Positions 41,067 to 64,000 are shown, counted from the stretch's first letter. The stretch: 64,000 bases of DNA from Nitrosomonadales bacterium (GCA_016213335.1 JACRAQ010000115.1:1338-65337); one strand, 5' to 3'. The notes: generated from the sequence alone by a model not told the origin. Numbers and translations: made by a program.

Positions 41067-41699
41067 CTAATCAATCAGATGGTTATTGATGGCATAGCGC
41101 ACCGCCTCGGCATTGTTTTTCAATTTCATCTTTTCCAGCAAGCGCGCGCGGTACACGCTGACGGTCTTGGCGCTGAGCGACATGGCTTCCGCGATTTCGC
41201 TCAGGGTTTTGCCGGACGCCATCAGGCACAGAGTCTGGTATTCCCGGTTGGAGAGCGTCTGGTGCAACAGTTCCTGGTAACCTTGCGACAGGCCGTCGGC
41301 AAGCTGCTCCGCCAGTTCGCTGCTGATGTATTTCTTGCCGCTGGCAACCTGGCGGATAGCGGTGACCAGCTGAGTCGGGGCGCTTTGCTTGCTCAAGTAA
41401 CCGGCCGCCCCTGCCTTCATCGAACGCAGCGCATATTGCTCTTCGGGGTGCATGCTCAGCATCAGCACCGGCAGTTGGGGATGGTTGAGCCTGAGTTGCC
41501 GCAACACGTCTATTCCATTCCTGTCCGGCATGGTGATGTCCAGCAGCACCACATCGTACTGGCTTACCTGTGCCATGCGGATGGCTTGCGCGCCACACTC
41601 GGCTTCGCCGGTCACGCGCATGTCTTCGGTGTCGTCGAGAATCTGTTTCATTCCCTTGCGGATCAGGGCGTGGTCATCCACCACCAGAATTGTTATCAT
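41067..41699 (-). CDS. NarL/FixJ (LuxR-type HTH) response regulator
   Basis: 210 aa. REC domain shows VVDDH and VLLDITMPDRNG. The C-terminus LSNREYQTLCLMASGKTLSEIAEAMSLSAKTVSVYRARLLEKM is a LuxR-type HTH. Confidence 0.9.
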   Translation of the reverse strand: MITILVVDDHALIRKGMKQILDDTEDMRVTGEAECGAQAIRMAQVSQYDVVLLDITMPDRNGIDVLRQLRLNHPQLPVLMLSMHPEEQYALRSMKAGAAGYLSKQSAPTQLVTAIRQVASGKKYISSELAEQLADGLSQGYQELLHQTLSNREYQTLCLMASGKTLSEIAEAMSLSAKTVSVYRARLLEKMKLKNNAEAVRYAINNHLID

Positions 41700-43258
41700 C
41701 GCTCCGCCCCGCTGCAGGCATCCTCAAGGGTGGCGCACACCGGAGCTTGTACGCCGCCATCCGGCTCGCTCCGCCGCTGATGCGGGATGCACACCGCAAT
41801 GGTGGTGCCTTTCCCGGGGGCGCTGAAAATCCGCACGTCACCGCCAAAATGGGCGACCCGCTCCCGGATACCGCGCAGGCCGAAAGAATGGGGTTTGCTG
41901 CGGTCGGCCTCGGTACAGCCGCACCCGTTGTCGCTGACGGTCAGGTTGATGCATTCGGCGCGGTTGGTGACTTCCACCGCAACCTTGCTGGCCCGCGAAT
42001 GCTTGGTGATGTTGGTGAGCGATTCCTGAAAAATACGGAACAGCGCGATGGCGACATCGGGTGCGGGCGCCGCGCCTTCATCGCTATGCTTGAGGGTGCA
42101 TGCAATGCCGGTTCTCTGCTCGAACTCGTTCGCTTCCATCTCGACGGCCGCGACAATCCCGAACGCATCCAGCACGCTCGGCCGGAGCGTACGCGAAATG
42201 TTGGTGGCAGCTACGGTGCATTTGTCTACCAGGTTTTCGATATTCCTGGCTTTGGCTGCCAGCTTCGGGTTGACGGATTTCAGGCGCCCGCCCAGCCAGG
42301 CGATATCCAGCTTGATGGCGGTGAGGGTGCTGCCCAGGTCGTCATGCACTTCCCGCGCGATGGCGAGGCGCTCCTGTTCACGCACATCGTGGATATGCGA
42401 AGAAAGTTCGCGCAGCTGTTCCTGCGAACGGTTTACCTCAATTTCGGCCAGCTTGCTCTGGGTGATGTTGAACATGATGCCTTCCCACAGGATGCCAGGC
42501 TGAACCGTGCGCGGACTGCAACGCAGATTGATCCATTTGGTTTCGTTATCCGGCAAAATGCGGATGCGCCCCTCCCAGTTCCAGAACGAAAGCTGCCGGG
42601 CCGAAGTATCCATGGTCTGCGCGTAGGAGGCGCGATCATCCGGGTGCAGCATGTCGAGAAACAGCGCAGGGCACTTTTCCAGATCCTGCGGGCTGAGGCC
42701 GAGCACCGCGTGGCTGCCTTCGCTGACGTAGGGAAAGCTCATGCCGCCATCGGGCCCGAGCAGCACCTGGTAGGCCATGCCCGGCAGGTCGGCGATGAAG
42801 GCGTGCAGCCGGGTCTGGTTCTCCAGCAGCGCAAGCTGGGCGGTGCGGTGTTCGCGGCGGATACGCGCCGCGCGCAAATTGTGTTCGATGGACGGCGCCA
42901 GCCGGTTCAGGCTGCCCTTGAAGATATAATCATCCGCGCCAGCCTGCATGGTGTGGATGATGGTTTCCTCGCGCAGATCGTGCGACAGAAATACAAAAGG
43001 TATGTCTATCTCGAGGGATTGCACCAGATTGAGCGCCTCCAGGCCGCAAAACCCGTCCGGGTCGTAGCTGCACAGCACCGCATCCCATCCTTCCTCGCCC
43101 CGGTCGTTTCCGGCCAGAGCTGCCCGCATGTCGGAAGCGTTATCCACCCGCAGTTGCACGACCGCATAACCGCTCTCTTTTAGCTTGGCGAGCGTGTGCG
43201 CCGCATCGTCTGGCGATGTTTCAACCAGCAAGACGCGAAGTTTTTTGATGCCCATCAT
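41696..43258 (-). CDS. sensor histidine kinase: N-terminal receiver-like domain + PAS + HisKA_3 + HATPase
   Basis: 520 aa with H-box REVHDDLGSTLTAIKL (HisKA_3), N-box QESLTNITKHS and G-box DNGCG…GLRGIRERV. The N-terminal 130 aa are REC-like. Overlaps the response regulator gene by 4 nt. Confidence 0.85.
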   Translation of the reverse strand: MMGIKKLRVLLVETSPDDAAHTLAKLKESGYAVVQLRVDNASDMRAALAGNDRGEEGWDAVLCSYDPDGFCGLEALNLVQSLEIDIPFVFLSHDLREETIIHTMQAGADDYIFKGSLNRLAPSIEHNLRAARIRREHRTAQLALLENQTRLHAFIADLPGMAYQVLLGPDGGMSFPYVSEGSHAVLGLSPQDLEKCPALFLDMLHPDDRASYAQTMDTSARQLSFWNWEGRIRILPDNETKWINLRCSPRTVQPGILWEGIMFNITQSKLAEIEVNRSQEQLRELSSHIHDVREQERLAIAREVHDDLGSTLTAIKLDIAWLGGRLKSVNPKLAAKARNIENLVDKCTVAATNISRTLRPSVLDAFGIVAAVEMEANEFEQRTGIACTLKHSDEGAAPAPDVAIALFRIFQESLTNITKHSRASKVAVEVTNRAECINLTVSDNGCGCTEADRSKPHSFGLRGIRERVAHFGGDVRIFSAPGKGTTIAVCIPHQRRSEPDGGVQAPVCATLEDACSGAER

Positions 43259-43738: not shown

Positions 43739-44963
43739 ATGCAGGAAATCTTTCTGGCTCGCCAGCCCATCCTCGATAAACGCAGCAAGCTGTTCGCGTT
43801 CGAATTGCTGTTCCGGTCAGCCAATAACACGGTATCGGGGGTAGTGGACAACACCCACGCCACCGCGCAGGTGTTGACCAGCGCGTTTGGAGATCTCGGC
43901 GTTACCAGGGTTCTCGGCCCGCACAAGGGGTTTATCAATGTGGACGCTGGATTTCTGCATAGCGATCTGATCGAATTGTTGCCCAGGCAGCAGGTGGTGA
44001 TCGAACTGCTGGAAACCATCACGATCAACGATGCGGTCATCGCGCGCTGCTACGAACTGAAAGCAAAGGGGTTCAGCCTTGCGCTGGATGATGTGGACGA
44101 ACTGGACGAGGCGGTCGCCTCCTTTGCTCAAGGTGGTTGATGTAGTCAAGCTGGACGTGATCCAGATCGCCCCGGAACGGTTGCCCGCGCTGGTGAAAGA
44201 GTTCCGGAAACACCCCGTCAAGCTGCTGGCCGAAAAGGTGGAAGACCACGCGCAGGCACGCCGCTGCACCGAAATGGGCTTCGATATGTTCCAGGGCTAT
44301 TATTTCGCGCGCCCCGAGGTGCTTTCCGGCAAGCGCGCGGACGTTTCCAAAATGGCGTTGCTGCAAATTCTGGTGCTGATGGCGGGCGGCGCAGACAACG
44401 AGAAAATCGAGGACGCGTTCAAGGAACATGCGACCCTCTCCTACAATCTGCTGCGCATCGTAAACTCGGCCGGCATGGGCTTGATGACCAAGGTCAGCTC
44501 CATCAAGCACGGCCTGATCGTGCTCGGGCGGCGGTCGTTGCAGCGCTGGGTACAATTGCTGCTCTACGCCTCCGGCAAGGAAGGTGAAGCGCCCAGCCCG
44601 CTGATGCGACTGGCCGCCACTCGCGCAAAACTGATGGAGCTGATCGTGCAACTCGAGCGCCCGAATGATCGCGACTATGCCGACCGCGCTTTCATGACGG
44701 GCATACTGTCGTTGCTCGGCGCCTTGCTGTGCGAGCCGCTACCGGAAATCCTGGCGCGCCTGAGCCTCGATGAGCAAGTTGAAGCCGCTCTGCTGGAGCG
44801 CGCGGGAAGATTGGGTAGCCTGCTGGACATTTGTGAAACAACAGAATCCGGCAACCTGCCCGCCATACAGGAAAAACTGCAAGCTCACCCCGGCCTGACC
44901 CTGAATGCGCTGAACGCGGCACAACTGGAAGCGTTGGGCTGGGCGAATAGCATCGCCGTATAA
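43739..44963 (+). pseudogene. EAL-like + HDOD c-di-GMP signalling protein (COG3434/YuxH-like), interrupted by a +1 frame change near 44095-44125
   Basis: ORF 43739-44140 (…FELLFRS…GFSLALDDVDELDEAV…) stops at 44138-44140. The next frame continues without a plausible start, with PLLKVVDVVKLDV…EKVE…GFDMFQGYYF and then an HDOD domain up to 44963. Together they make one ~408-aa protein. Confidence 0.7.
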
Positions 44964-51644: not shown

Positions 51645-52955
51645 TCAGTTTTCCTCGTCGCGGTCGTTCAGCAGGTGCGAGATGCGCGTGTTCGCCACCG
51701 CCAGGCGCTTCACCAGCATGCGCAGGAAAGCCTCGCTGAACTGGAAGCGGCACCCCGTTGACGATTGCGCCAGAACATTAGGCTTGATTTCGATCAGGAT
51801 CGCATCGTCTCTGGCCATCACGTCGGTCGTGCGCAGGAAATCCCGTTCGGAAAGATGCGCCATTTCTCCGAAGCAATCGCCCTTGTGCAGCACGCTCAGC
51901 AGCCGCCCGCGCTTGAGCACCTTGACCGCACCGCTGGCCAGGATGAAGAATTCCTGCCCTGCCTCACCCTCGCTGATGATGCGCTCGTCCTTTTGCACCT
52001 TGCGCCATTCGCTGATATGCAGCACTTCCCACAGCTCGACGTCGCTGAACTTCCTGAAGAACTCCAGCTCGCGCAAGGTATTGAATTTTTCTGTTACGAA
52101 AATTTCCGTTTGCGGCGCTACGTTGCGGCTGAAAAATGTCACCAGATCGCGGGCGAACTCATCCCAGCTCTGGTAGCGCTGCTGGAGGTTCTTGCACATC
52201 GCGCGCATCACGATGGCGTCCAGCGCCGGCGAGATTTCCGGGCGAAAGGTGCTGGCCGGCTGCGGCTCCATGTTCATGATCTGGTAAATCATGCTGTAGT
52301 TGTTGCGCGCGTCGAACGGCAACTTGCCGGTCAACAGCTTGTACATGGAAACGCCGAGCGAATAAATATCGGTCTGGTGGGTCAGCGTCTGTTCCCTGAT
52401 CTGCTCTGGCGACATGTAAGCGGGCGATCCCACGCCGCTCACCTGCGTGGTTTGCTGGCTCTCGATGACCGCCGCACCAAAATCTGAAATCTTGATATCG
52501 CTCTCGCCGTGCAACAGGATATTGGCCGGCTTGATGTCGCGGTGGATAATCCCCTGGTATTGCGCATACTCCAGCGCCTTGCAGCATTTGTAGATGATTT
52601 CCGCAACCGTGCTCAGCGGCAACAGGTGGTCCACTTCGGCGTAACGCTCGAGCGTTTCCCCCTCCACATATTCCATCACCATGTAGTTCACGTCACCATC
52701 CATCACGGCATCGAAAACTTTCACGATGTGCGGGTGCGACAGTTTGCCGGCCAGTGACGCTTCAGTCAGAAACAACTTCCGGTAGGCCTTGGTGCGGGTG
52801 CTGTCGCGCAAGGCATCGAGGTTGAACAGCTTGATGGCGACCCGCTGGTTGGCGAACGGGTCAAGTGCAAGATACACCGTGCTGGTCGCGCCGCTACCCA
52901 GTTCCCGGATGATTTCGTATTTGCCTATTTTGTCCATAAAACCGGATAGAGCCAT
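51645..52955 (-). CDS. Hanks-type Ser/Thr protein kinase fused to a C-terminal cyclic nucleotide-binding (CNB) domain
   Basis: 436 aa. Kinase motifs are the Gly loop LGSGATSTVY, VAIK, HRDIKPANILL, DFG and GSPAYMSPE. The C-terminal CNB shows EGEAGQEFFILASG.VKV and FGEMAHLS…RTTDV. Confidence 0.85.
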   Translation of the reverse strand: MALSGFMDKIGKYEIIRELGSGATSTVYLALDPFANQRVAIKLFNLDALRDSTRTKAYRKLFLTEASLAGKLSHPHIVKVFDAVMDGDVNYMVMEYVEGETLERYAEVDHLLPLSTVAEIIYKCCKALEYAQYQGIIHRDIKPANILLHGESDIKISDFGAAVIESQQTTQVSGVGSPAYMSPEQIREQTLTHQTDIYSLGVSMYKLLTGKLPFDARNNYSMIYQIMNMEPQPASTFRPEISPALDAIVMRAMCKNLQQRYQSWDEFARDLVTFFSRNVAPQTEIFVTEKFNTLRELEFFRKFSDVELWEVLHISEWRKVQKDERIISEGEAGQEFFILASGAVKVLKRGRLLSVLHKGDCFGEMAHLSERDFLRTTDVMARDDAILIEIKPNVLAQSSTGCRFQFSEAFLRMLVKRLAVANTRISHLLNDRDEEN

Positions 52956-53042: not shown

Positions 53043-54458
53043 ATGAAAAATCTGACGCTTGCTTTGTTGCTGGCGCTGGCGCTGCCGTGCCGCGCGGAAG
53101 GGCTGCCCGATCTGGGAGATGTTTCTCAAGCCGCAGTCTCACCGCAACAGGAGCGCCAGATCGGCGAACAAAGCATGTTCGAGATCCGCGCTGACAAAAG
53201 CTATCTTGACGATGCCGAAATCGGCGACTACCTCAACCAGCTCGGCTACCAGCTGGTCGCAAACAGCAGTGAGCCAGGCCAGGAGTTTGAATTCTTCGCC
53301 ATCAACGACAATGCCATCAACGCCTTCGCTCTGCCCGGCGGCTTCATCGGGGTAAACACCGGCCTGATCCTCGCCACGCAAAGCGAATCCGAGCTCGCCT
53401 CGGTATTGGGCCACGAAATCGCCCACGTCACGCAGCATCATCTGGCGCGCATGGTGGCCGGGCAAAAAATAGATACGCTCGCCGCGATGGCCACCATAGC
53501 GGCAGCCATCCTGGCCGCACGCAGCAACCCGGATGCCGCACAGGCCGCGATAGCTGGCGTGCAGGCGGGCGCCATCCAGCGACAGTTGAACTTCACCCGC
53601 ACGCACGAACAGGAAGCTGATCGCCTCGGCCTCGACACACTGCAAAAATCCGGCTTTGACCCGCACGCCATGCCCGTCTTCCTGGAACGTCTGCAAAAAG
53701 CCACTCGCTTGCTGGAAGGCAATGCGCCCACCTATCTGCGCACCCACCCGATAACCGGCGAACGCGTCGCCGATATTGCCGGTCGCCTGCAGCGCACCCC
53801 CTACCGCCTGGTAGCCGACAGCCTCAGCTTTCATCTGGTGCGCGCCAAACTCCAGGCCGCCCAGAAGATACCTCAGGAAGCGCTCGCCTATTTCACCGGG
53901 GCGCTGGGGTCGCGGAAACACGGCAACCAGACCGCGCAACGCTACGGGCTGGTGCTGGCCCTGCTGCGCAATAAACAGCCCGCGCGCGCCGCGCAGGAAT
54001 TCGCCGCGCTGCAAAAACAGGCAACAAAAAATCCGATGATTGCGACGCTGGCGGGGCAGCTCAAGCGAAGGGACAAAAACGACAAGAGCGCCATCGGGTT
54101 CTACCGCACTGCCACCCAGAATTTTCCGCAGCACCGCGCGCTGGCTTACGACTACGCGGAAATGCTGTTGCAAGCCCGCAAACACGAAGACGCGCTCAAG
54201 CTGCTCAATGAACAAATCATCAGCCACCCCAGCGACCCGCGCCTGTATGAGCTACAGGCGCGCGCCTACGCGGCGACAGGCAAGCGGCAGGAAGAGCACC
54301 GCGCGCTCGCCTACAACTACGCCCTGCGCGGCAAGCTATACGGCGCGATCGAACAGCTGGAACTGGCAAAACAGGCGGGCTCGAACTATTACCAGCTCTC
54401 CATAATCGAGAGCGAACTGCGCGAACTGCGCGAAATAGCTGACGCGCGCAATAAATAG
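53043..54458 (+). CDS. M48 family zinc metalloprotease with C-terminal TPR domain (BepA/YfgC-like)
   Basis: 471 aa with a signal peptide, the zinc motif HEIAHVTQHH with downstream E (EQEAD), and C-terminal TPR-like repeats. Confidence 0.85.
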   Translation: MKNLTLALLLALALPCRAEGLPDLGDVSQAAVSPQQERQIGEQSMFEIRADKSYLDDAEIGDYLNQLGYQLVANSSEPGQEFEFFAINDNAINAFALPGGFIGVNTGLILATQSESELASVLGHEIAHVTQHHLARMVAGQKIDTLAAMATIAAAILAARSNPDAAQAAIAGVQAGAIQRQLNFTRTHEQEADRLGLDTLQKSGFDPHAMPVFLERLQKATRLLEGNAPTYLRTHPITGERVADIAGRLQRTPYRLVADSLSFHLVRAKLQAAQKIPQEALAYFTGALGSRKHGNQTAQRYGLVLALLRNKQPARAAQEFAALQKQATKNPMIATLAGQLKRRDKNDKSAIGFYRTATQNFPQHRALAYDYAEMLLQARKHEDALKLLNEQIISHPSDPRLYELQARAYAATGKRQEEHRALAYNYALRGKLYGAIEQLELAKQAGSNYYQLSIIESELRELREIADARNK

Positions 54459-54465
54459 GAAATTG

Positions 54466-56075
54466 CTATTTTTTCCCAAGCGCATCCAGCTTATCGCACG
54501 CGATACGGCGTCCCGCCTTGCAGACTGCCGTGAGGTCGGCGCGCGCAGAATCTCCATCTCCCATCATCATGTATGCCACGCCCCTAGAATAACGCGCCTG
54601 GTCATATCCGCTATCCAGTTCCAACGCGCTGCCAAAACTTGAAACGGCATCTGCATACTTACTTTCCTGAATATAAGCTGCGCCCAGTCCTTGGTAGAGA
54701 TATTTCTGCCCCGAACGAGGCGACAGTGAAAGTGCCAAGCGATAATCCTGTATTGCCTGCTGGGAGCGTTTAACATTCAGGAAAGATATTGCCCGATTTT
54801 CATAAATACGCCATACCCCTGGCAGGTCATGCTTTTGCTCAACCAATTTGGCCGCATCATGCCACAGCAACACAGGATCAGAAAAAGTGGTCAGGCGGTT
54901 TATGCTGCCCATGGCAAAGGCAAGGATCATAAGCAACATGACAGGCATTGCAATGCCAGCCTTGACTCTGCTTAGCCACAGCGGCAAAACGATAAAGATT
55001 CCCGTCATCCATAGATAACTGCGGTACAGCACAAACGATTCCTGAATCCTGACTGTAGAAAATTCGGTAAGAACAGAAGCCACGGAAACAACATGGCAAA
55101 GCCCGCCACACCCATCGCCCCGCGCCGGAGCAGCAGCCAGACCGCTGCCATGCCATAGCCGGCAAATGCCAATGCCGCCAACCCGGAGATCGAAAAAAAA
55201 CCGGTAGCGAAAGGCTCGCGCATATCCACCGACATCCAGGCCGGATTTGGCAATAACCATAACCCGGCATATTTGAAAAACAAGGCGCACTGCGTCAGGA
55301 TACTGAGCGGATAGGCGTGCTTGATTTCAGCTTGTTCCAGCATTCCCCGCGCATTGAACTCATACACACTTCCGAGAATGCCCAATTTCTGGAACACTAC
55401 GAACAATGCGATGAACAGGCAAGCCAGATATATCCATCGCAGCCGCCTGAACAGGTTTGCCGATAAATCGGACAACAATACCGTCAGAGCCAGCAAAACA
55501 GCTGGCAGCATGATAGCGTGTTCTTTTGACAGCACAGCCAACCCATAGAATAAAACGCTCGCCCACAACCAGCCATCACGATTACTGGCCAGCCCGCGCA
55601 TATAGGCCAGCAGCGCAAGCAAGCTGAACAGAGTAGCCATGACTATGGTGCGCTGGATCAGATAGCCCGCGCCATATACCGCCACTGGGTGCAACACAAA
55701 CAGGCTCGCCGAACAGAAGGCAAGCAATTGGGTCTCTTTTTCGCTACGCCCCAAAGCAGGTATCTGTTGATACAACCGCCGTAACAGAAAAAACAACGTA
55801 ACCCCAACAACGGCATGCAACAAAAGCGCCTCCAGCCGCAGCCAAGGCAGATTTTCGTCCGCCGCCTCCACCGTCCATGCCATGGTTGCATAAGGTAACC
55901 AGCGTATCTGCAACGGGGAAAATGCGCCTAACTTATTGACGTCATCCGATCCGGGAATAAACAGATTCGTGTCGTCAAACACCAACGGATTGGTTAAGAA
56001 CGGGCCGTACAACAGCACAGCCATAATGATGATCATTACGGCGTAGCCCAAGGCGCGCAACGGCATTTGTCCCAT
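54466..56075 (-). pseudogene. TMTC/PMT_2-like multi-pass membrane protein with C-terminal TPR repeats, split by a 1-nt frame change near 55059-55062
   Basis: Frame A (to stop 55005) has LVFDDTNLF near its N-terminus and about 9 TM helices. Frame B (54466-55290) continues with …STVRIQESFVLYRSYLWMTGIFIV…, further TM helices and then TPR repeats. Adding one T to the minus-strand T4 run joins them as …PWLLFLPNFSTVRIQES…. The start (56075 or 56066) is uncertain. Confidence 0.55.
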
Positions 56076-56094
56076 CAGATTTGCGTTTGCAATG

Positions 56095-56128
56095 AAAAAA
56101 CCCGGCAAGAAATCTTGCCGGGTTTTTG
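56095..56128 (-). terminator. Rho-independent (bidirectional) terminator after the pilin gene
   Basis: aaaaaa-CCCGGCAAGA-aat-TCTTGCCGGG-ttttt. A perfect 10-bp stem is flanked by an A6 tract and a T5 tract. Begins 17 nt downstream of the pilin stop. Confidence 0.85.
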
Positions 56129-56144
56129 TTACAACGCGCTTAGC

Positions 56145-56582
56145 TTAGTTCTTCACGTAGGCGTTAGCCACGCACGCGCCACTGTATTGCCAATCAAGGC
56201 GATTAGCCGACGTATTGGGGGTTGGAGTCATAGTACAAGTGTCGCCCGCTGCAATACCCTTAACTGCATTGGGTGTCGCAGTGATAATGCCGCCAGCAGC
56301 CACAGCGACGGCATTCAATGCACCAGTCGTGTTGCCAGTAATCGCAGGAGGAACACCGCTGGTGCCGGCTGTGCAACCAGCAGCGAGACCAGCATCACCC
56401 GCCTCGCCCCAACAATCTTCCACACCCAGCTTGAACGGGGTCATCGCTGAGGTCACTTCGGTGTAGGCCGCCTTCCGGATATAATTCTGGTAAGCGGGTA
56501 TTGCCACTGCCGCTAGAATACCGATGATCGCGACCACGATCATCAGTTCGATGAGGGTAAAGCCTTTTTGGGTTTGTTTCAT
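56145..56582 (-). CDS. pilA: type IVa major pilin
   Basis: 145 aa with the class III leader MKQTQKG|[28 protein letters not shown]-terminal Cys pairs, and RBS AAGGAGA upstream. Confidence 0.93.
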
Positions 56583-56637
56583 GTTGAATCTCCTTAATCA
56601 GGTTGGTTACGACACACGGGGTGTGCAGTTGCTATAC

Positions 56638-56653
56638 TGCAGTATCCGTGCCA
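56638..56653 (-). promoter_or_regulatory. sigma-54 (-24/-12) promoter for the pilin gene
   Basis: The minus strand reads TGGCACGGATACTGCA, versus the consensus TGGCACG-N4-TTGCW. The GG and GC dinucleotides have the correct spacing. Lies about 55 nt upstream of the pilin ATG. Confidence 0.65.
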
Positions 56654-56737
56654 CGGCACTCAGCCAGGCTAACATATTGTATAAACAATAGTTATTGCAA
56701 CTCCACCACCCAGCCGCCGCATTTACCTGCCTAATCC

Positions 56738-56753
56738 TGTCAGCCATGTGACA
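56738..56753. promoter_or_regulatory. candidate enhancer (bEBP/PilR-type) binding palindrome upstream of the sigma-54 promoter
   Basis: TGTCA-GCCATG-TGACA is a perfect inverted repeat about 94 bp upstream of the -24 element. An AT-rich stretch (attgtataaacaatagttattg) lies between the two. Confidence 0.4.
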
Positions 56754-56767
56754 ATTTTCGTCAGCCC

Positions 56768-58360
56768 TTACGGCACATAGCCGGGAATCCGGCTTTCATC
56801 CACCGTATCAATCTGCTCGGGATCCAGGAATTGGCGCGCATAGGCCAGATACACTTTCTCGCGCACGAAGATGTCGAACAGGTCCGGGTCTATATGCCCA
56901 CTGAGTTTGAAATTGCCGAGTATAACGAGCGATTCGGTGAGGGTTTTGCCTTTTTTGTACGGCCTGTCCTTGGCGGTGAGCGCTTCGAAAATGTCGGCGA
57001 TACCCATCATGCGCGCCTGTAGCGACATTTGCTCGCGTTTCAGCCCGCGCGGGTAGCCCTTGCCGTCCATGCGTTCGTGGTGGCCACCGGCGAATTCCGG
57101 CACATTCTTGAGGTGCTTGGGCCAAGGCAGCGATTCCAGCATCTTGATGGTGACGTCAATGTGGTGGTTGATGATCTGGCGCTCGGCCACGGTAAGCGTG
57201 CCAAACGGGATGGTAAGGTTTTCCACTTCGTCGCCGCTGAGGAAATTGCTCTGCTCACCCGCCTCGTTGCACCACCGGTAAGAGGCGATGCTGCGCACCC
57301 GCGCCTGGTCCGCCGCGCTCATCTTTTCCGAACCGATGTTGCAGTGCCGCAAGAATTCGCGGTCATCGTTCAATTGGCGAATGCGTGCTCCAAACTCATC
57401 AGCGCTCATTTCTCCCTTGAGCTTTACGATCTCGGCATCGCGCTTGAGCACCTCGAAGCGGGTATCCAGCAGATGGATGCGGTCCAGCAAAGTGTGCAGT
57501 TTGGTGGATTTGTCCACCACATGCACCGGGGTAGTAACCTTGCCGCAATCATGCAGCAGCGCCGCAATTTTCAGCTCATGCTTCTCCCTGCCGCTCATCG
57601 CCAAACCATGCAGCGGCGATGCCGGTCCGGCACGGCAGGCCGCCTCGGCCAGCATCATGGTCAGGATCGGCACACGCTCGCAATGGCCGCCGGTATAGGG
57701 CGACTTGTCGTCAATTGCAGTGTTGATGAGGCTGATGAAGGATTCGAACAGATCTTCCAGCTGCTGGATCAGGCGGCGGTTGGTGAGCGCAATGGCGGCC
57801 TGCGAGGCGAGCGATTCCAGCAGGTGCTCATCCTCGCTGGAAAACGCGACAATCTCCCCGGTCTTCCTGTCCAGGGCATTGATAAGCTGCAACACGCCGA
57901 TGATCTCATTCTCGTGATTCTTCATCGGCACTGCCAGAAATGAGGTGGAGCGGTATCCGGTTTTCTTGTCGAAATTCTTGGTGCCGGAAAAATCGAAACC
58001 TTCGGCGGTGTAGGCGTCGGCGATGTTCACCGTCTTGTCGTGCAGCGCCACGTAGGCCACCACCATGGAGTTGTTGGGTTTGCCGTCCTTGTCGGTCAGG
58101 TGGATGGGGTAATAAGGTATATATGCGCCGGATGTGCCGCCCATCTTGATACCGAGCGAATCGGTGCGCATGATCTCGAACCGGAGCACCAGCTCATTTG
58201 GTTCCACCAGATACAGCGTTCCCGCATCGGCGTTGGTGATGCGTTTTGCGGCAACCAGTATGGTTTCCAGCAGGCGGTTGATGTCGCGTTCGCTTGACAG
58301 CGCGATGCCGATGGCGTTCAACTCGTCCAGCCGCTGCAGCAGGTCGTCGTGGTGTGTCAT
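56768..58360 (-). CDS. GAF domain + HD-GYP domain protein (putative c-di-GMP phosphodiesterase)
   Basis: 530 aa. The N-terminal GAF shows NADAGTLYLV…VNIADAY…DKKTGYRSTSFLAVPM…GVLQLIN. The HD-GYP shows GGHCERV, LHDCGKV and HHERMDGKGYPRGL. Confidence 0.88.
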   Translation of the reverse strand: MTHHDDLLQRLDELNAIGIALSSERDINRLLETILVAAKRITNADAGTLYLVEPNELVLRFEIMRTDSLGIKMGGTSGAYIPYYPIHLTDKDGKPNNSMVVAYVALHDKTVNIADAYTAEGFDFSGTKNFDKKTGYRSTSFLAVPMKNHENEIIGVLQLINALDRKTGEIVAFSSEDEHLLESLASQAAIALTNRRLIQQLEDLFESFISLINTAIDDKSPYTGGHCERVPILTMMLAEAACRAGPASPLHGLAMSGREKHELKIAALLHDCGKVTTPVHVVDKSTKLHTLLDRIHLLDTRFEVLKRDAEIVKLKGEMSADEFGARIRQLNDDREFLRHCNIGSEKMSAADQARVRSIASYRWCNEAGEQSNFLSGDEVENLTIPFGTLTVAERQIINHHIDVTIKMLESLPWPKHLKNVPEFAGGHHERMDGKGYPRGLKREQMSLQARMMGIADIFEALTAKDRPYKKGKTLTESLVILGNFKLSGHIDPDLFDIFVREKVYLAYARQFLDPEQIDTVDESRIPGYVP

Positions 58361-58385
58361 CGCTTGCCCCGCATCGAATAAAGTG

Positions 58386-60791
58386 CTACTTGATACAAAC
58401 CGCGCGCACCTGGTGAATGTCGGTAATGCCCGCCAGCACTTTCTCGATGCCGTCCTGTTTCAGCGTGCGCATCCCCTCTTCCAGCGCGATCGCCAGCAAT
58501 TCTGCGACGCGCGCGTGCTCCTGGATGGCTTTTTTGATGGGGTCGGTGCCGATCAGCAGCTCGTGCAACCCGACCCGGCCGCGGTAGCCGGTGCCGGAGC
58601 ACTTGTCACAGCCGACTTTTTCATACAGGGTGATATGCCCCTTGTCATCCGCGAATAGCTTGATCCAGTCGGCATACAGCGTCTTGAATGCGGCATTCGG
58701 ATCTTTCTTCCAGGTTTCGGTATTTTTCAGTTCTTCCGCATATTCGGACAGCAAGGACTTGATCTCTTCCTGGGTCGCGATACGCGGTTTCTTGCAATCC
58801 TTGCACAGGCGCTTGGCCAAACGCTGCGCCAGGATGCCCAGCAGCGCATCGGCGAAATTGAACGGATCCATGCCCATATCCAGCAGGCGGATGATGGATT
58901 CAGGCGCGCTGTTGGTGTGCAGGGTAGCGAACACCAGGTGGCCGGTGAGCGAGGCTTCGATGCCGGTTGCAACGGTTTCCTTGTCGCGCATTTCGCCGAC
59001 CATAATCACGTCCGGATCGGCACGCAGGAAGGCGCGCATGATGGTGGCAAAGTCCAGCCCGGCCTTTTTGTTGATCTGCACCTGGCGCAGGCCCTTCTGG
59101 GTGATTTCCACCGGGTCTTCCGCCGTCCATATCTTGGTATCCGGCGTGTTGATATGTTTCAGGATGGAGTGCAGTGTGGTGGTTTTACCGGAGCCGGTCG
59201 GGCCGCACACGAAGAACAGCCCGTAAGGCTTGCTGACCGTCTTCTTGACCAGCTCCAGGTTGCGTGCCGAAAAACCCATGTTGTCGAGCGGGATCGGCTC
59301 GCCCGAAGCCAGGATACGCATCACGACGTCTTCCACGCCACCTTGTGAAGGGATGGTCGCCACGCGCAGCTCGATATCCAGGGGGCCGTACTTCTTGAAC
59401 TTGATCTTGCCATCCTGCGGTTTGCGCTTCTCGGAAATATCGAGGTCGCACATGATCTTAAGGCGCGTGACCAGCGCGTTCCGGTAAGTTGCAGGGATCT
59501 CGATGTAACTCAACAACGAGCCATCCTTGCGCAGGCGTATCCCGGTCTTGCCTTTCCCCGGCAAAGGCTCGATGTGGATGTCGGATGCCCCCATCCGGTA
59601 GGCATCCACGATGATCTTGTTGACCAGCTTGACCAGCTCGTTGTCCGCTGCGGCGCTGACATCTTCCTGGCTGACAGCGCTGGATTCTTCATCCTCTCCC
59701 CCCAGCGAGGTAAGCAGGTCGTCCACGGAACCGCTATCTGCCTCGAAGCCTCCGGTGATTTCACCCGTTCCGCCGCCGCTGTAGAACAGGTCGAGCGTGG
59801 CCTTGAATTCGCGTTGCGGGCAGACTTTATAAATCAGGCGGTTCTTGGGAAAAATGTTGTTGACAACGCGCGAGGCCATGATCCGCTCCGGATCGGTGGT
59901 GAGGATCACCAGCCCTTCCTGGTTCTCCTCTATCGGCACCCAGTGGCTGCTCTCGACATATTCGCGCTTCAGGTTCCGGAGCAAGTCTGCGGGCTTGATG
60001 CGGTCGGTCTTGTGCGGCTCGTAGGGCACGCCGAAGTAGGTGGAAAGCGCCTTGCCCAGCGCGGGCAGTGCGACCTGAAACTCGTCTATCAGCACATCCT
60101 CGATGTCGGCGCCCTTGCGTCGTGCGGTACGCGTGGCCAGCTCGAATTCTGCGGCGGAGATGACCGCATCCGCTACCAGGTTATCGTATTTCGTTTTGAC
60201 AACGGAAGGCTGCTGGCGCTGGCGCAACGCCACCGCCAGCGTCTGCGCCAGCTCGTGCACGCCTTCCTCCACGACCTGCGGGAAAGGCTGGTCGGCCTTG
60301 TTGTTGATGACCTGGATGACGCCGATCAGCTCGCCGCCAGCCGCCTCGACGATGGGCGCCACCAGCATCTGCTTGGTGCGGTAGCCGGTGCGCCGGTCCA
60401 CGTCCTGCAAGAAACGCAACTGCGGGCTGTAGGATGCGAGCTCCTTCTCGTCGTACACGTCCTTGAGGTTGAGCGTTTTCTTGTTCAGCGCGGCAAAACC
60501 GGCGATGCTTTGTTCAGCGATGGGCAGCTTGAGATCCTTGAACGAGTTCAGGCCGGTCTTGACCTTGGAAACCAGCGAAACCTTGTCCTCTCCCACCACG
60601 TAAACAGTGAGGCGATCGGCATTGAACAGGCTGCAGATATCCTTGCTGACATCCAGCATGATCTCGTCAATGTTGCTGGTGGCATGGATCTTGTTGATGA
60701 CGTGGTTGAGGTTTTTGGTAAACTCCAGCCGTATTTCCATGTCGCCTGCGCTCGTCCTGCGCTCGATGCGGGGTACTGTCGCGTTATCCAT
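58386..60791 (-). CDS. GspE/PilB-family secretion ATPase with N-terminal GAF domain
   Basis: 801 aa. Domain order: GAF (…NADRLTVYVV…LNLKDVY…DRRTGYRTKQMLVAPI…GVIQVINN), a T2SSE_N-like domain and an acidic linker, then the ATPase core. The core has Walker A GPTGSGKTTT, Walker B DPDVIMVGEMRD, His box GHLVFATLHTN and Cys motifs CKDC…CDKC. Confidence 0.88.
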   Translation of the reverse strand: MDNATVPRIERRTSAGDMEIRLEFTKNLNHVINKIHATSNIDEIMLDVSKDICSLFNADRLTVYVVGEDKVSLVSKVKTGLNSFKDLKLPIAEQSIAGFAALNKKTLNLKDVYDEKELASYSPQLRFLQDVDRRTGYRTKQMLVAPIVEAAGGELIGVIQVINNKADQPFPQVVEEGVHELAQTLAVALRQRQQPSVVKTKYDNLVADAVISAAEFELATRTARRKGADIEDVLIDEFQVALPALGKALSTYFGVPYEPHKTDRIKPADLLRNLKREYVESSHWVPIEENQEGLVILTTDPERIMASRVVNNIFPKNRLIYKVCPQREFKATLDLFYSGGGTGEITGGFEADSGSVDDLLTSLGGEDEESSAVSQEDVSAAADNELVKLVNKIIVDAYRMGASDIHIEPLPGKGKTGIRLRKDGSLLSYIEIPATYRNALVTRLKIMCDLDISEKRKPQDGKIKFKKYGPLDIELRVATIPSQGGVEDVVMRILASGEPIPLDNMGFSARNLELVKKTVSKPYGLFFVCGPTGSGKTTTLHSILKHINTPDTKIWTAEDPVEITQKGLRQVQINKKAGLDFATIMRAFLRADPDVIMVGEMRDKETVATGIEASLTGHLVFATLHTNSAPESIIRLLDMGMDPFNFADALLGILAQRLAKRLCKDCKKPRIATQEEIKSLLSEYAEELKNTETWKKDPNAAFKTLYADWIKLFADDKGHITLYEKVGCDKCSGTGYRGRVGLHELLIGTDPIKKAIQEHARVAELLAIALEEGMRTLKQDGIEKVLAGITDIHQVRAVCIK

Positions 60792-60842
60792 CCACTGCTC
60801 CTTGTGATGCCTGTACCGGAATCAATTACCGGCCCCGGCGTA

Positions 60843-61940
60843 TTATTCCTGCTGATATCTGGGCGCCTTCCACAGGCCGCCTTCCAGCACGTAAACATCG
60901 TATCCCGCCTGCGCCAGAATGAATGCGGCAGCCGAACTGCGCCGCCCGCTCTGGCAATAGGTGATGTAGGTGCTGTTTCTATCGAGCGCCCCGATCGCGC
61001 TCCGGACATCGTTCAGCGGGATATTGATCGCGCCCGGTATTTTGTCGAAGCGGTATTCCGACGGGTGGCGCGCATCCACCCATATCGCGCCCTGTGCCAC
61101 TTTTTGCCTGGCATCCTCGTAGCTCAGGCGGTGCAGCAACGGCTCCTGCATCAGTTCGAAAAAATCCTGCCGCTTCAGGCGCAACAGCACGCCGCCGGAC
61201 TTCATGGTCACCGTAGCGTTGCGCTTGGCGCCTGAAACCAGCGCCTCTTCACCGAACACGTCGCCCGCCTTGAGGTCCGCCAGCAGCATGTTGATTCCGC
61301 CGACCTGGCGGGTAACCTGCGCCCGGCCGCTTTCTATCATGTAATAGTAATCGCCCTCGTCGCCCTCGCGGATAATGGCGTCGTTGGCCCATACCGCCAC
61401 CGCTTCGATGCGCTCGAGCAACTGCCCGATATTGGCCGGCGGCAAGTGGGCAAACGGGCCGCTCTTGATGTATTCTGCGCTGAATATGCCGGAACTCAGC
61501 CAGCGCGAGGGTCCGGTGGACAATTCCGGCGCGGCGCCGCTCTCCGTTAGGGGTTTCGCGCCGTCGTGCGGCGAAAACTGGTCCCACGTCGCAATCATGT
61601 CCAGCACATCGTCATCCACGCGCAGCAACTGGATGTCGCTCAGCGCCGTGGCGCCAACGATTTCGGGCTGGCGCTTGCCCAACGGGTGCTTGGCCCATTC
61701 TGAATTGGCACGCACCAGCACCCGGTTGCCATCCTGGTATTCCAGCTCCAGCTCGCCCTGGAGCAGGTACACGGACTGCCCATGCAGACCGCGCTTCCCG
61801 AATGGATTCTGCCCCTTGGGAACCGCTTCCAGATGACTATAGTCGAGCAGCTCACGCAAGCGGGCAGGACCGAACGACGAAATCGGCTTCAGCGCTGCCA
61901 GCATTCTGATGTCCAACATACCGCTCATCGTGTCTTCCAT
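60843..61940 (-). CDS. tandem cyclic nucleotide-binding-like domains + C-terminal rhodanese domain
   Basis: 365 aa. The first CNB-like fold is degenerate. The second is canonical (REGDEGDYYYMIESG…GDVFGEEALVSGAKRNATV). The rhodanese domain has the active-site loop YCQSGRRS. Confidence 0.8.
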   Translation of the reverse strand: MEDTMSGMLDIRMLAALKPISSFGPARLRELLDYSHLEAVPKGQNPFGKRGLHGQSVYLLQGELELEYQDGNRVLVRANSEWAKHPLGKRQPEIVGATALSDIQLLRVDDDVLDMIATWDQFSPHDGAKPLTESGAAPELSTGPSRWLSSGIFSAEYIKSGPFAHLPPANIGQLLERIEAVAVWANDAIIREGDEGDYYYMIESGRAQVTRQVGGINMLLADLKAGDVFGEEALVSGAKRNATVTMKSGGVLLRLKRQDFFELMQEPLLHRLSYEDARQKVAQGAIWVDARHPSEYRFDKIPGAINIPLNDVRSAIGALDRNSTYITYCQSGRRSSAAAFILAQAGYDVYVLEGGLWKAPRYQQE

Positions 61941-61976
61941 CCCGGAACGCTAAAACTCGAACACTTGGCCGTTTTG

Positions 61977-62720
61977 CTAGATCCGGGGGGGTAATCGGCG
62001 CACGCACTCCCCGATCTCCTGATTTGTCAGCTCGACCTCACCGGGTTTCAGGTGGGTAATGTAAATTTCCGGATCAAGCTTGAGCTTCAGCAGCTCCTCG
62101 GCCAGCATGCTGGGGCAAAAATGCTTGGAGCGCACCGCCAGATCCCTTTCCGCATTGGAAAAGGCGGTTTCGATGATAAGGTAGCGCAGGTTGGCGATGC
62201 GGTTGACCTCCTCCCACAGCGCATCGTTGGTCGTGGTATCGCCGCTGAATACCAGGCTGGCTGCCCCGCTGTCAACGCGAAACCCCACTGCGGGCACCAC
62301 GTGGTTGGCCGGCAACACGGTAATGCTTGCCCCCCGTTTTTTCAGTTCCACGGTCTGCCCCACCCGTATCGCGCTGTAGCGCATGAAGGGCCGTTGCGCG
62401 TCGGGAATGCGGGTGAAATCCGGCCAGATTCCCCAGTTAAAAATATGCTGCCTGAGAAGCGCCAATGTTTCCCCGGTGGCGTGGATGGTCAGCGGTTTGT
62501 CGCGCATAAAGCCAGCGCTGTCCACCAGCAGCGGGACACAAGCGATGTGATCGAGATGAGAATGCGTGACGAACACGTGGTCTATCATGCTCAGCTCGGT
62601 CAGGCTGAGCTCGCCCACGCCGGTGCCGGCATCAATCAGCACATCATTGTCCAGCAACATGGACGTGGTGCGCGAATTTCCACCAATGCCACCGCTGCAG
62701 CCGAGAATTCTGAGTTTCAT
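61977..62720 (-). CDS. class II 3',5'-cyclic-nucleotide phosphodiesterase (metallo-beta-lactamase fold)
   Basis: 247 aa with MKLRILGCSGG…, the signature THSHLDHI, and later FSGDT and the ITHLKP region. Confidence 0.78.
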   Translation of the reverse strand: MKLRILGCSGGIGGNSRTTSMLLDNDVLIDAGTGVGELSLTELSMIDHVFVTHSHLDHIACVPLLVDSAGFMRDKPLTIHATGETLALLRQHIFNWGIWPDFTRIPDAQRPFMRYSAIRVGQTVELKKRGASITVLPANHVVPAVGFRVDSGAASLVFSGDTTTNDALWEEVNRIANLRYLIIETAFSNAERDLAVRSKHFCPSMLAEELLKLKLDPEIYITHLKPGEVELTNQEIGECVRRLPPRI

Positions 62721-62755
62721 CGCCAGCTATCCGAACCGGTTATCGGGGCTTCCGG

Positions 62756-64000
62756 CTATTTAGTTTGAAAAACAAATACGCCATCCCAGTCCGCTCCCGG
62801 CGGGTTGCCCCGGAAATATGCGACACGTTCGGCATAGGCTTGGTACAGCACGCTTTCGGGCGCCATGCGCTGCAAATTATACAGCTGCAATTCCGCCTGC
62901 TCCCAATCCTGCTTGCGGTACAACTTCAGCACCTGATGAAAAAGCTTGAGTTCGTCCAGCGCGGCCTTGTCCACCTGGCCCGCCAAACCGAGCGGCTCAT
63001 AAATCGCTACGGGCTTGTCCTTGCCTTTCACCCGCACCAGGTCAAGCTCGCGGTAGATGAAATCCGGCACAGCGTTTTTGGTGTTCTCGCCCACGACGAC
63101 ACCCGCCCCATATTGCTTGGTAATGCCTTCCAGGCGCGAGGCCAGATTGACCGCATCTCCCATGACAGTATAGGCCACGCGCACTTCCGATCCCATGTTG
63201 CCCACGCTCACGCGACCGGTGTTGATGCCGACGCCGATATGGATTTCCGGCCAGCCGCGCTCCTTGAAATGCGGCAAAAGCTCCCGCAACTTCTGCTGCA
63301 TTTCAATGCCCGCCAGGATCGCGTGTTTCGCGTGCTCCGGATCCGGCAGCGGGGCGCCCCAGAATGCCATGATGCAGTCGCCCATGTATTTGTCTATGGT
63401 GCCGCGGTGCTTGTAGATCACGCGCGACAGGGGGGTGAGGAACTCGTTCATCAGCAAGGTGAGCTCCTTGGCGTCCAGCTTTTCTGAAATGCTGGTAAAG
63501 CCGCGCACGTCCGAGAACAGGATGGTCATCTCGCGGCTGTCGCCTTCCATCGAAACCTGCTCCGGATTCTTGCTCATCTCGTCAACCAGCTCGGACGGCA
63601 CGTATTGCCCGAACAGGCCGGTAATCTGCCGCTTGGTGCGCGCTTCGACAAAATAGCCGTAAGACATATCCAGCGCGAACAACCCCAGTATCATCAGCAC
63701 ACCGCCCGCCAGCGGCAATGCCAGCCCGGCAAAATGCCAGATTGCCAGGTTGCCCGCCAGCGCGGTCGCCAGTGCAAGCAAGGCGAGCAGCGTCGCCTTC
63801 ACCGGCGACAGCAATGGCAGGATCAGGCTCAGCACCACGCCGGTGATCAGCAACAACATGACTTCTGCACCCAGCAAGTAGGGAGGCTTGTGCTTGAGGT
63901 CCTGGTTGAGGATGCCATCTATCATGTTGGCGTGGATTTCCACCCCCGGATACACCGCCGCGACCGGGGTGGAGCGCATGTCCATCAACCCCGGTGCAGA
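62756..64000 (-). CDS. CHASE2-sensor class III adenylate/guanylate cyclase (N-terminus outside window)
   Basis: The frame is open to the window edge. It contains a CHASE2 tail (YPGVEIHANMIDGIL), 3 TM helices, then a cyclase domain with ILFSDVRGFTSISE, DKYMGDCIMAFWGAP and AYTVMGDAVNLASRLEG. Confidence 0.85.
   Translation of the reverse strand, partial: SAPGLMDMRSTPVAAVYPGVEIHANMIDGILNQDLKHKPPYLLGAEVMLLLITGVVLSLILPLLSPVKATLLALLALATALAGNLAIWHFAGLALPLAGGVLMILGLFALDMSYGYFVEARTKRQITGLFGQYVPSELVDEMSKNPEQVSMEGDSREMTILFSDVRGFTSISEKLDAKELTLLMNEFLTPLSRVIYKHRGTIDKYMGDCIMAFWGAPLPDPEHAKHAILAGIEMQQKLRELLPHFKERGWPEIHIGVGINTGRVSVGNMGSEVRVAYTVMGDAVNLASRLEGITKQYGAGVVVGENTKNAVPDFIYRELDLVRVKGKDKPVAIYEPLGLAGQVDKAALDELKLFHQVLKLYRKQDWEQAELQLYNLQRMAPESVLYQAYAERVAYFRGNPPGADWDGVFVFQTK

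Follow-up and report, generated by a model that had tools for sequence, protein, structure and literature searches.

A 64,000-nt stretch of DNA from a Nitrosomonadales bacterium (GCA_016213335.1 JACRAQ010000115.1:1338-65337; hereafter the window, with positions counted from its first letter) ends in a cluster of predicted cyclic-nucleotide signalling genes that includes an ATPase of the PilB/GspE assembly type fused to a GAF domain. The cluster comprises five co-directional minus-strand open reading frames (ORFs). Read in the direction of transcription, they encode a CHASE2-class III adenylate cyclase (62756..64000, running past the window end; C-terminal 414 residues, with Pfam matches to the end of CHASE2 and to Guanylate_cyc), a metallo-β-lactamase (MBL)-fold phosphodiesterase (PDE) of the class II PDE/Apyc1/RNase Z group, presumed to be the eraser of cyclic AMP (cAMP) (61977..62720; 247 aa; Pfam Lactamase_B_2 and PDEase_II), a cyclic-nucleotide-binding (CNB)-rhodanese protein (60843..61940; 365 aa; Pfam cNMP_binding and Rhodanese), the GAF-N1D-N2D-T2SSE ATPase (58386..60791; 801 aa; Pfam GAF, MshEN and T2SSE), and a GAF-HD-GYP phosphodiesterase with the architecture of PmGH and Tlr0485 (56768..58360; 530 aa; Pfam GAF and HD/HD_5).

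The ORF listing gives spacers of 35, 36, 51 and 25 bp between the five genes, and a terminator scan together with folding of the gaps revealed no hairpin plus T-tract in the four short intergenic gaps. This layout agrees with an earlier reading of the window made by a model from the DNA alone (the sequence-only reading), which had described a compact, terminator-free module of five genes. In a tblastn comparison, the cyclase ORF is 74% identical to residues 330-743 of its 743-aa Sideroxydans ortholog, and the alignment reaches position 64000. The window thus ends inside the cyclase gene, the N-terminal ~330 residues of the enzyme falling beyond its end, and a kinase branch upstream of the cyclase was for this reason invisible to the sequence-only reading.

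Synteny of the cluster in Betaproteobacteria

We aligned the GAF and N1D region of the ATPase with two relatives (three sequences, 37-45% identity) and used the alignment to scan GTDB at one genome per species. The scan gave 212 confirmed matches, of which the best 80 loci, with 55-91% identity, were kept. These loci lie in Betaproteobacteria-type metagenome-assembled genomes (MAGs) labelled Gallionellaceae, Rhodocyclaceae/Rhodocyclales, Burkholderiales or Ca. Nitricoxidireducens. Gene presence was judged by tblastn, the queries being the proteins of the window and those encoded upstream in Sideroxydans, and a locus was counted only if its contig extends far enough.

The conserved order is CHASE2-Ser/Thr kinase, PP2C, FHA, CHASE2-adenylate cyclase, MBL phosphodiesterase, (CNB-rhodanese), GAF-PilB/GspE-like ATPase, GAF-HD-GYP, (pilA). 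The HD-GYP gene directly follows the ATPase gene in all 55 loci judged. PP2C is present in 57 of 58 loci and FHA in 58 of 60, followed by the Ser/Thr kinase (49/56), the cyclase (53/61) and the PDE (62/73), while CNB-rhodanese is found in 28 of 75 and a pilin within 600 bp of the HD-GYP gene in 25 of 50. Median gaps are 10-96 bp within the cluster, compared with 245 bp ahead of the pilin. Recurrence of this order in 80 species-level loci is far more than chance would give, and the synteny counts and gaps define the real unit as an operon-like cluster of ~8 genes. In it, the ATPase and HD-GYP genes form an invariant core and CNB-rhodanese, which the sequence-only reading had taken for a core part, is accessory; pilA often adjoins the cluster and has transcription signals of its own.

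The window genes are therefore the distal, visible part of a larger, widely conserved betaproteobacterial operon. Linkage beyond close relatives was the test by which the sequence-only reading had offered to be refuted, and the linkage holds. Its description of the module as consisting of five genes and as self-contained has to be given up, because in orthologous loci the cyclase gene is preceded, in what would be the region past position 64000, by genes for a CHASE2-Ser/Thr kinase, PP2C and FHA; this Hanks-kinase branch, which the window does not reach, belongs to the conserved unit.

Conservation within the cluster is strongest for the ATPase and the HD-GYP protein, with a median identity of 69-70%. 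The window ATPase is 100% identical to a protein of a Nitrosomonadales MAG and 84-92% identical to proteins of Gallionellaceae (Sideroxydans, Sideroxyarcus and Gallionella). In the complete genome of Sideroxydans lithotrophicus ES-1 (CP001965, 532-548 kb) the gene order is identical, and three co-directional genes come before it, for a CHASE2-Ser/Thr kinase of 843 aa, a PP2C phosphatase and an FHA protein of 246 aa. The triad is likewise adjacent and co-directional upstream of the cyclase in related loci and, judging from the closest relatives (L003, 91% identity), is probably present in the genome from which the window comes. To judge by their 28% identity over 471 residues, the CHASE2 domains of kinase and cyclase are homologous but old paralogs. 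The FHA protein consists of an FHA domain followed by a Thr/Ser-rich linker; Pfam reports only this first FHA domain, and what follows the linker would, on our reading, be another domain of the FHA type in degenerate form.

The GAF-ATPase architecture extends well beyond this clade, with 247 clusters (at 50% identity) matching at E<1e-30. Five distant GAF-GspE proteins with at most 45% N-terminal identity (P0183, P0216, P0132, P0147 and P0165) are encoded beside PilZ or unrelated metabolic genes, or are orphans. Since these more distant proteins sit in other contexts, the cluster is confined to a single betaproteobacterial clade. At least 80 species have it, mostly uncultured environmental Betaproteobacteria (Gallionellaceae iron oxidisers, Rhodocyclaceae and Burkholderiales), organisms for which surface attachment and motility are ecologically important. 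The best 120 matches to a Burkholderiales ortholog are all MAG or environmental sequences and include no additional cultured host.

In one locus (L044, 5192-7605) the cluster directly follows the succinyl-CoA ligase genes sucCD, and in Sideroxydans (L001, 1-354) a succinyl-CoA ligase gene again lies upstream, with TerC and Usp genes between the ligase and the kinase gene. Such neighbours suggest that the cluster has a stable place in the chromosome and is not a mobile island.

Enzymes and binding protein of the cyclic-nucleotide branch

The cyclase carries the motifs FSDVRGFT, DKYMGD, YTVMG and VNLASRL of a class III adenylate cyclase, and the catalytic residues of that class are complete, with two metal Asp and the transition-state Asn and Arg. 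Of the metal Asp, the Lys and the Thr from which the sequence-only reading had recognised a class III enzyme, the latter two are of the adenylate type: the substrate-defining Lys is present in 56 of 57 orthologs and the Thr in 52 of 57, and the Glu variant in none of the 57. The closest solved relatives include CyaB of P. aeruginosa (3r5g) and photoactivated adenylate cyclases. In the alignment with 3r5g, both the Lys (GTIDKYMGD versus GTIDKFVGD) and the Thr (YTVMG versus YTIIG) coincide. The product of the cyclase is likely cAMP.

The adjacent PDE contains the metal-binding motif HxHxDH (HSHLDH in the window) in 62 of 62 orthologs. A putative MBL phosphodiesterase after the cyclase, as named in the sequence-only reading, is a conserved feature. 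Pfam gives 62 bits for Lactamase_B_2 and 46.5 bits for PDEase_II (cut-off 23.7), the latter match covering only profile positions 83-144 of 340; the score against NCBIfam NF041851 is 38 bits, for a cut-off of 400. Homologs are named 3',5'-cyclic-nucleotide phosphodiesterase by NCBI and have PF23023 among their precomputed Pfam assignments. In a Foldseek comparison based on an AlphaFold2 (AF2) model (pLDDT 81.6), RNase Z and YhfI ranked above yeast PDE1 (rank 31) and Apyc1 (rank 35). The model fits all four about equally well. The fold is correct, but the substrate would be cAMP mainly on account of the fixed position of the gene after the cyclase.

In the window, the PDE ORF stops at an in-frame TAG (61977-61979, minus strand) where 29 homologs have Leu. 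The eight codons after it (QNGQVFEF) and the stop at 61950-61952, which is the ancestral one, correspond to the conserved C-terminus, of which 8-9 residues are lost. The premature stop reflects a genuine nonsense mutation or else a fault in the assembly. Elsewhere, a Burkholderiales subgroup (L062, L075, L076, L078, L079 and L081) is without the PDE gene; in L075 (9621-9992) ~370 bp without an ORF in the operon direction separate the cyclase from the ATPase, and the gaps in the others measure 286-429 bp.

The CNB-rhodanese protein has one canonical cNMP-binding domain at about residues 163-270, with a CAP/PKA-type cassette, FGEEALVSGAKRNAT, that is conserved in 30 of 30 orthologs. The domain scores 71 bits in Pfam, and its best PDB matches are the CNB domains of PKA and PKG. 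The active-site Cys loop of the rhodanese, CQSGRRS, is conserved in all 30 orthologs as well. The sequence-only reading had assigned two CNB domains to this protein, of which this one stands; residues 1-180, a degenerate N-terminal domain in the place of the other, have no Pfam match even at E<=1 and no phosphate-binding cassette. A profile of these residues aligns with the protein's own CNB domain in a colinear but weak manner (hhalign E 0.0056, probability 6.5%), and an AF2 model made from the single sequence was unusable (pLDDT 35.9).

A cyclase and a CNB effector, accompanied by an Apyc1-like phosphodiesterase, could also make up a Pycsar-like anti-phage module. Among the PADLOC models, those for PycC score up to 103 bits with the cyclase domain and those for PycTIR hit the CNB domain weakly; PF23023, listed for the PDE orthologs, is the family Anti-Pycsar_Apyc1. 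The PADLOC matches are, however, generic and at the level of domains, covering part of each profile. In addition, there is no TIR or transmembrane killing effector, the cyclase combines a purine/adenine-type Lys and Thr with a CHASE2 sensor, and a fixed order that is conserved vertically across 80 species, and twice next to sucCD, is unlike a defence island. We consider a defence function very remote and rejected it on these grounds.

The GAF-ATPase and the GAF-HD-GYP protein

The ATPase contains Walker A (GPTGSGKTT), Asp box (EDPVE), Walker B (DPDVIMVGEMRD) and His box (LHTN) motifs, which are conserved in 67-68 of 68 orthologs. A tetracysteine Zn-site motif, CxxC...CxxC, is present in the window protein and, with the spacing tested, in 51 of the 68 orthologs. 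With a Pfam T2SSE score of 376 bits, the protein has the features of a PilB/GspE-type assembly ATPase, at scores below the NCBIfam equivalog cut-offs of both PilB (TIGR02538, 474.4 versus 675.65 bits) and GspE (TIGR02533, 436.1 versus 630.25 bits). The PDB matches of its ATPase part are PilF and PilB, then GspE. By these comparisons, it is a distinct subfamily of assembly-type ATPases, slightly nearer to PilB/PilF than to GspE.

The N1D of the ATPase matches the Pfam MshEN fold model (40.9 bits; residues 253-341). The c-di-GMP (cyclic di-GMP)-binding motif of MshEN spans 24 residues and was defined by Wang et al. (PMC5013675). With a strict pattern as well as the relaxed one of that study, this motif was found in none of the 68 orthologs and in none of 15 wider GAF-GspE proteins; the positive-control sequence matches the pattern.

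This result bears on the relay put forward in the sequence-only reading, which runs from a cyclic mononucleotide (cNMP) to c-di-GMP to the ATPase. In such a series the cNMP would activate the GAF-HD-GYP protein and the MshEN-type domain of the ATPase would sense the resulting drop in c-di-GMP, thereby gating a pilus or secretion function. The cyclase, the putative PDE, the CNB domain and the PDE/CyaB-like GAFs of this relay find support, but its step from c-di-GMP to the ATPase is disfavoured by the missing motif. A series of this kind would fit the match of residues 253-341 to MshEN, the binding of c-di-GMP through MshEN by MshE, PilB2 and M. xanthus PilB (PMC5013675; PMC11656802), and the HD-GYP gene that invariably adjoins the ATPase gene. 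The absence of the motif from every ortholog argues against it, and the indirect route is unnecessary because the ATPase has a cNMP-type GAF of its own with conserved adenine contacts. We regard the series as quite improbable; without the MshEN motif in the N1D, the ATPase and the HD-GYP protein look like parallel outputs.

The best solved relatives of the ATPase GAF are the two cAMP-bound GAFs of Anabaena CyaB2 (1ykd, E 5e-25), followed by those of PmGH, PDE10A and PDE2A. In CyaB2 GAF-B, cAMP is contacted by R291 (to N1), T293 (to N6/N7), I308 (stacking) and D356 (PMC4411481). Specifically, an HMMER alignment places R60, T62, V76 and D132 of the ATPase at these four positions. The motif ADRxT is present in 68 of 68 ATPase orthologs and in most relatives at ~30% identity, and the cGMP-binding GAF-B of PDE2A has Ile at the position of the adenine-contacting Arg. 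The ATPase GAF has the sequence features of a cNMP-binding GAF of the PDE/CyaB type, with cAMP as its putative ligand. As the c-di-GMP motif is absent and a cNMP-type GAF lies in front, the ligand predicted for the ATPase is cAMP rather than c-di-GMP.

The HD-GYP protein contains the motifs GHCERV, HDCGK and HHERMDGKGYP, conserved in 53-57 of 58 orthologs, with HHExxDGxGYP in 56 of the 58 and a Pfam HD_5 score of 137.7 bits. Its best PDB match is PmGH (4mcw, E 5e-32), and the second is V-cGAP3, which is specific for cyclic GMP-AMP (cGAMP). The predicted substrate is c-di-GMP, or possibly another cyclic dinucleotide such as 3'3'-cGAMP. Residues 291-419 replace 27 residues of PmGH, giving an insertion of ~100 aa between the HD and GYP halves, which is also an insertion relative to V-cGAP3. 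It may equal the 'HdiD' insertion described in 2026 for the Leptospira REC-GAF-HD-GYP protein LIC_11189 (PMC12943098).

The GAF of the HD-GYP protein has its best relatives in the GAFs of PmGH, PDE5 and CyaB2. Both GAFs of the cluster resemble the PDE/cyclase type, as the sequence-only reading had noted from their common stretch N[IL]xD[AV]Y...D..TGYR[ST]; they share 32% identity over 104 residues, and N[IVL]xD[AV]Y and D..TGY[RK][ST] are conserved among HD-GYP orthologs. At the adenine-contacting position they differ: the ADRxT of the ATPase is AD[G/A]GT, with Gly or Ala in place of the Arg, in 58 of 58 HD-GYP orthologs. The two GAFs therefore need not share a ligand; with no Arg to contact N1 of adenine, the HD-GYP GAF could be specific for a different nucleotide.

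It is conceivable that both GAFs bind some other small molecule, or only dimerise, and that the cyclase and PDE signal to other targets, for example CNB proteins. GAF ligands are very diverse (PMC4411481), and that of the structurally solved PmGH is unknown. The HD-GYP GAF without its Arg, the loci from which cyclase or PDE is missing, and a separate kinase with a CNB domain in the window (51645-52955) would all fit. Against this explanation, the closest structures to either GAF are without exception cNMP-binding GAFs or PmGH. None of the 68 ATPase orthologs departs from the Arg and Thr at the adenine contacts, relatives at ~30% identity nearly always keep them, and the linkage to cyclase and PDE is tight and persistent. 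We find it improbable.

Proposed pathway and the pilin neighbourhood

We propose, with a probability of roughly 0.55, that the conserved operon lets cAMP and a Thr-phosphorylation branch gate a pilus-assembly-type ATPase and a c-di-GMP phosphodiesterase in parallel. In this proposal, the input would come from two extracytoplasmic CHASE2 membrane sensors, one on the Hanks-type Ser/Thr kinase and the other on the class IIIb adenylate cyclase. The kinase, partnered with the PP2C phosphatase and the double-FHA protein, would form the phosphorylation branch, while the cyclase would make cAMP and the adjacent MBL-fold PDE would remove it. The messenger would be read directly by the GAF of the ATPase, in the regulatory place held by the c-di-GMP-binding MshEN motif in MshE/PilB, probably also by the GAF of the HD-GYP protein, for which Tlr0485 provides a precedent, and in some lineages by CNB-rhodanese. 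As outputs, the ATPase would adjust the assembly of a type IV pilus-like filament, and the HD-GYP protein would lower the level of c-di-GMP or perhaps of a different cyclic dinucleotide. All steps that concern ligands, activities and phenotypes are inferred, and so are the direction of regulation, the substrate of the kinase and the type IV pilus as the machine served. The specific claim that the GAF-fused PilB/GspE-family ATPase is a direct cAMP receptor, so that the pilus motor is gated post-translationally and in integration with Thr-phosphorylation and the HD-GYP protein, is a tentative one that we hold at rather less than even odds.

Several known systems resemble parts of this scheme. 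Tlr0485 of Thermosynechococcus vulcanus is a GAF-HD-GYP c-di-GMP phosphodiesterase whose hydrolytic activity depends on cAMP binding to its GAF (PMC8846402). Like it and PmGH of Persephonella marina (4MCW), the protein described here combines a GAF with a downstream HD-GYP domain in which the HHExxDGxGYP motif is complete; it differs in the ~100-aa insertion, in a GAF without the adenine-N1 Arg, and in sharing an operon with an ATPase. Bd1971 of Bdellovibrio, a CNB-EAL protein, similarly has c-di-GMP hydrolysis switched on by cAMP or cGMP (PMC8846402), but through a CNB rather than a GAF sensor and with an EAL rather than an HD-GYP catalytic domain. With Anabaena CyaB2 (1YKD) and the GAF-B domains of PDE10A and PDE2A, the cluster shares the GAF subfamily, and the cAMP contacts of CyaB2 are conserved in the ATPase GAF; here the GAF is single instead of tandem, and the output is a secretion ATPase or an HD-GYP domain rather than a cyclase or a eukaryote-type PDE.

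MshE, PilB and PilB2 have in common with the window ATPase the N1D-N2D-CTD layout, an N-terminal sensor, predicted in the window protein, by which a nucleotide second messenger controls pilus assembly, the same motifs and the tetracysteine site; the window ATPase differs in the absent c-di-GMP motif and in the cNMP-type GAF added in front. In the Pil-Chp/CyaB/Vfr system of P. aeruginosa, a class IIIb cyclase is again involved and cAMP controls type IV pili (PMC11656802). There cAMP acts transcriptionally via Vfr, whereas here the predicted receptor is the motor ATPase, and the sensor is CHASE2 instead of a chemotaxis-like system.

The phosphorylation branch has a counterpart in PpkA/PppA/Fha1 of the H1 type VI secretion system of P. 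aeruginosa, in which a Hanks kinase with an extracytoplasmic sensor, a PP2C phosphatase and an FHA protein act post-translationally. In both cases kinase, PP2C and FHA are encoded together with a component of a nanomachine; here this component is a PilB/GspE-type ATPase and not a type VI secretion system, the kinase sensor is CHASE2, and a cAMP branch is added.

To our knowledge, control of PilB-type motors has been explained by the binding of c-di-GMP to MshEN and by the action of partners, PilZ and FimX among them, and cAMP is known to act on pili only via transcription (Vfr, SyCRP1). Direct gating by cAMP would, if true, be a regulatory mode so far undescribed for the PilB/GspE motor family, and a single operon would couple a surface filament of iron-oxidising and further Betaproteobacteria to cAMP, Thr-phosphorylation and c-di-GMP. 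The individual parts are of known kinds, and the proposal is for that reason an extension of existing knowledge, not a new principle. An ATPase family that swaps a degenerate c-di-GMP site for a cAMP-type GAF would offer a concrete, biochemically simple test case for gating of a pilus or secretion motor directly by cAMP, and for a three-way crosstalk that links cAMP, phosphorylation and c-di-GMP. Wang et al. 2016 (PMC5013675) catalogue the domain architecture GAF-MshEN-T2SSE in their Supplementary Table 4, for Geobacter lovleyi Glov_1971 and beside REC- and cNMP-fused variants, and cite neither a reference nor a study for it. In a full-text literature search, this catalogue line was all that we found on a GAF-PilB/GspE protein or such a gene cluster, in line with the sequence-only reading, which knew of no characterised example; GAF domains go unmentioned in a recent review of how PilB is regulated.

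Several observations weigh against the proposal of parallel gating by cAMP and Thr-phosphorylation. On the cAMP side, the GAF of the HD-GYP protein is without the adenine-contacting Arg, the Foldseek comparison cannot separate the PDE from RNase Z-type nucleases, and the PDE of this particular genome carries a premature stop. The cyclase is missing in 8 of 61 loci and the PDE in 11 of 73; the ATPase GAF nevertheless retains its motif in such loci, and cAMP, should it prove to be the ligand, may have a source other than the adjacent cyclase. The distant GAF-GspE proteins lie outside such clusters. On the pilus side, the pilin adjoins in only half of the loci judged (25/50), and neither the cluster nor the window contains a gene for a PilC/GspF platform, a secretin or a prepilin peptidase.

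The link to a type IV pilus rests on the PilB/PilF-like motor, on the adjacent sigma-54 pilA in half of the species, and on a pilin-associated GT-C/TPR gene. The GAF-ATPase could instead serve another filament or secretion system, or be mainly a signalling or scaffold ATPase under nucleotide control, in which case the adjacency to pilA would be incidental. Such a role would account for the platform, secretin and peptidase genes not being nearby, for pilA being adjacent in only half of the loci, and for scores below both the PilB and the GspE equivalog cut-offs; a second sensor-fused ATPase (REC-MshEN-T2SSE) is nearby in some loci, and PilB of M. xanthus reportedly has a signalling role. It is harder to reconcile with best matches to PilF and PilB slightly ahead of GspE, with a tetracysteine site and an N1D-N2D-CTD layout that are those of assembly motors, and with a pilin that directly follows in 25 of 50 loci under a conserved sigma-54 promoter, often together with the GT-C/TPR gene. 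We judge a role outside the type IV pilus unlikely, though a serious contender.

The second ATPase gene is seen in L044 (16187-18607, plus strand), where an 806-aa REC-MshEN-T2SSE ATPase, checked against Pfam, is encoded a few kb downstream of the cluster, after pilA and a TPR gene. Similar second ATPase genes lie downstream in L038 and L046, identified there only by a tblastn match to the ATPase domain. In none of the three loci is there a platform gene alongside.

In the window, the pilin gene lies 185 bp downstream of the HD-GYP gene and encodes a pilA-like type IVa prepilin (56145..56582, minus strand; 145 aa; Pfam N_methyl; NCBIfam PRK10574, 103 bits). As the sequence-only reading had stated, it has a −24/−12 promoter of its own: the element TGGCACGGATACTGCA (TGGCAC-N5-CTGCA; 56638..56653, minus strand) is a one-mismatch match to the sigma-54 consensus (GG-N10-GC, TGGCAC-N5-TTGCW). 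Across the whole window, sigma-54-like elements at up to two mismatches number 39, compared with 53 expected, so that a single match is not above chance. The pilA element is credible because an equivalent one is present in 23 of 28 related loci, 44-100 nt ahead of the pilin start. The 185-nt region between HD-GYP and pilA (56583-56767, minus strand) folds mildly better than shuffled sequence (z -2.4), and no Rfam family was found in 54000-64000. A palindrome upstream of the pilA promoter, TGTCACATGGCTGACA, was considered as the site of an enhancer-binding protein and dropped, as it is conserved in only 2 of 28 loci.

After pilA, an intrinsic terminator can be read from the sequence at 56095..56127 (minus strand), with a 9-bp GC-rich stem (CCCGGCAAG/CTTGCCGGG), an ATTT loop and a run of six T; the surrounding 68 nt fold at -31.9 kcal/mol. 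The next gene on the same strand (54466..56108, with an uncertain start at 56075-56108) encodes a GT-C-like membrane protein with C-terminal TPR repeats and weak Pfam matches to PMT_2 and TPR families. A frameshift near 55068-55071 breaks this gene into two overlapping ORFs; the Sideroxydans counterpart is a single 544-aa protein, with which tblastn switches from frame -3 to -2 at 55071/55068. The protein presumably resembles TfpW, the pilin glycosyltransferase of P. aeruginosa.

About 1.5 kb beyond the GT-C/TPR gene, with a plus-strand gene for an M48 peptidase in between, the minus strand encodes a 436-aa Hanks-type Ser/Thr kinase with a C-terminal cNMP-binding domain (51645-52955), combining the two in a single chain as in PKA/PKG-like proteins. 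This gene lies outside the conserved cluster in other genomes, and its product is another possible cAMP reader in this one. Farther away, the window encodes an HDOD protein with only the last ~40 residues of an EAL domain (44079-44963, plus strand) and a REC-PAS-HisKA_3-HATPase hybrid kinase (41696-43258, minus strand).

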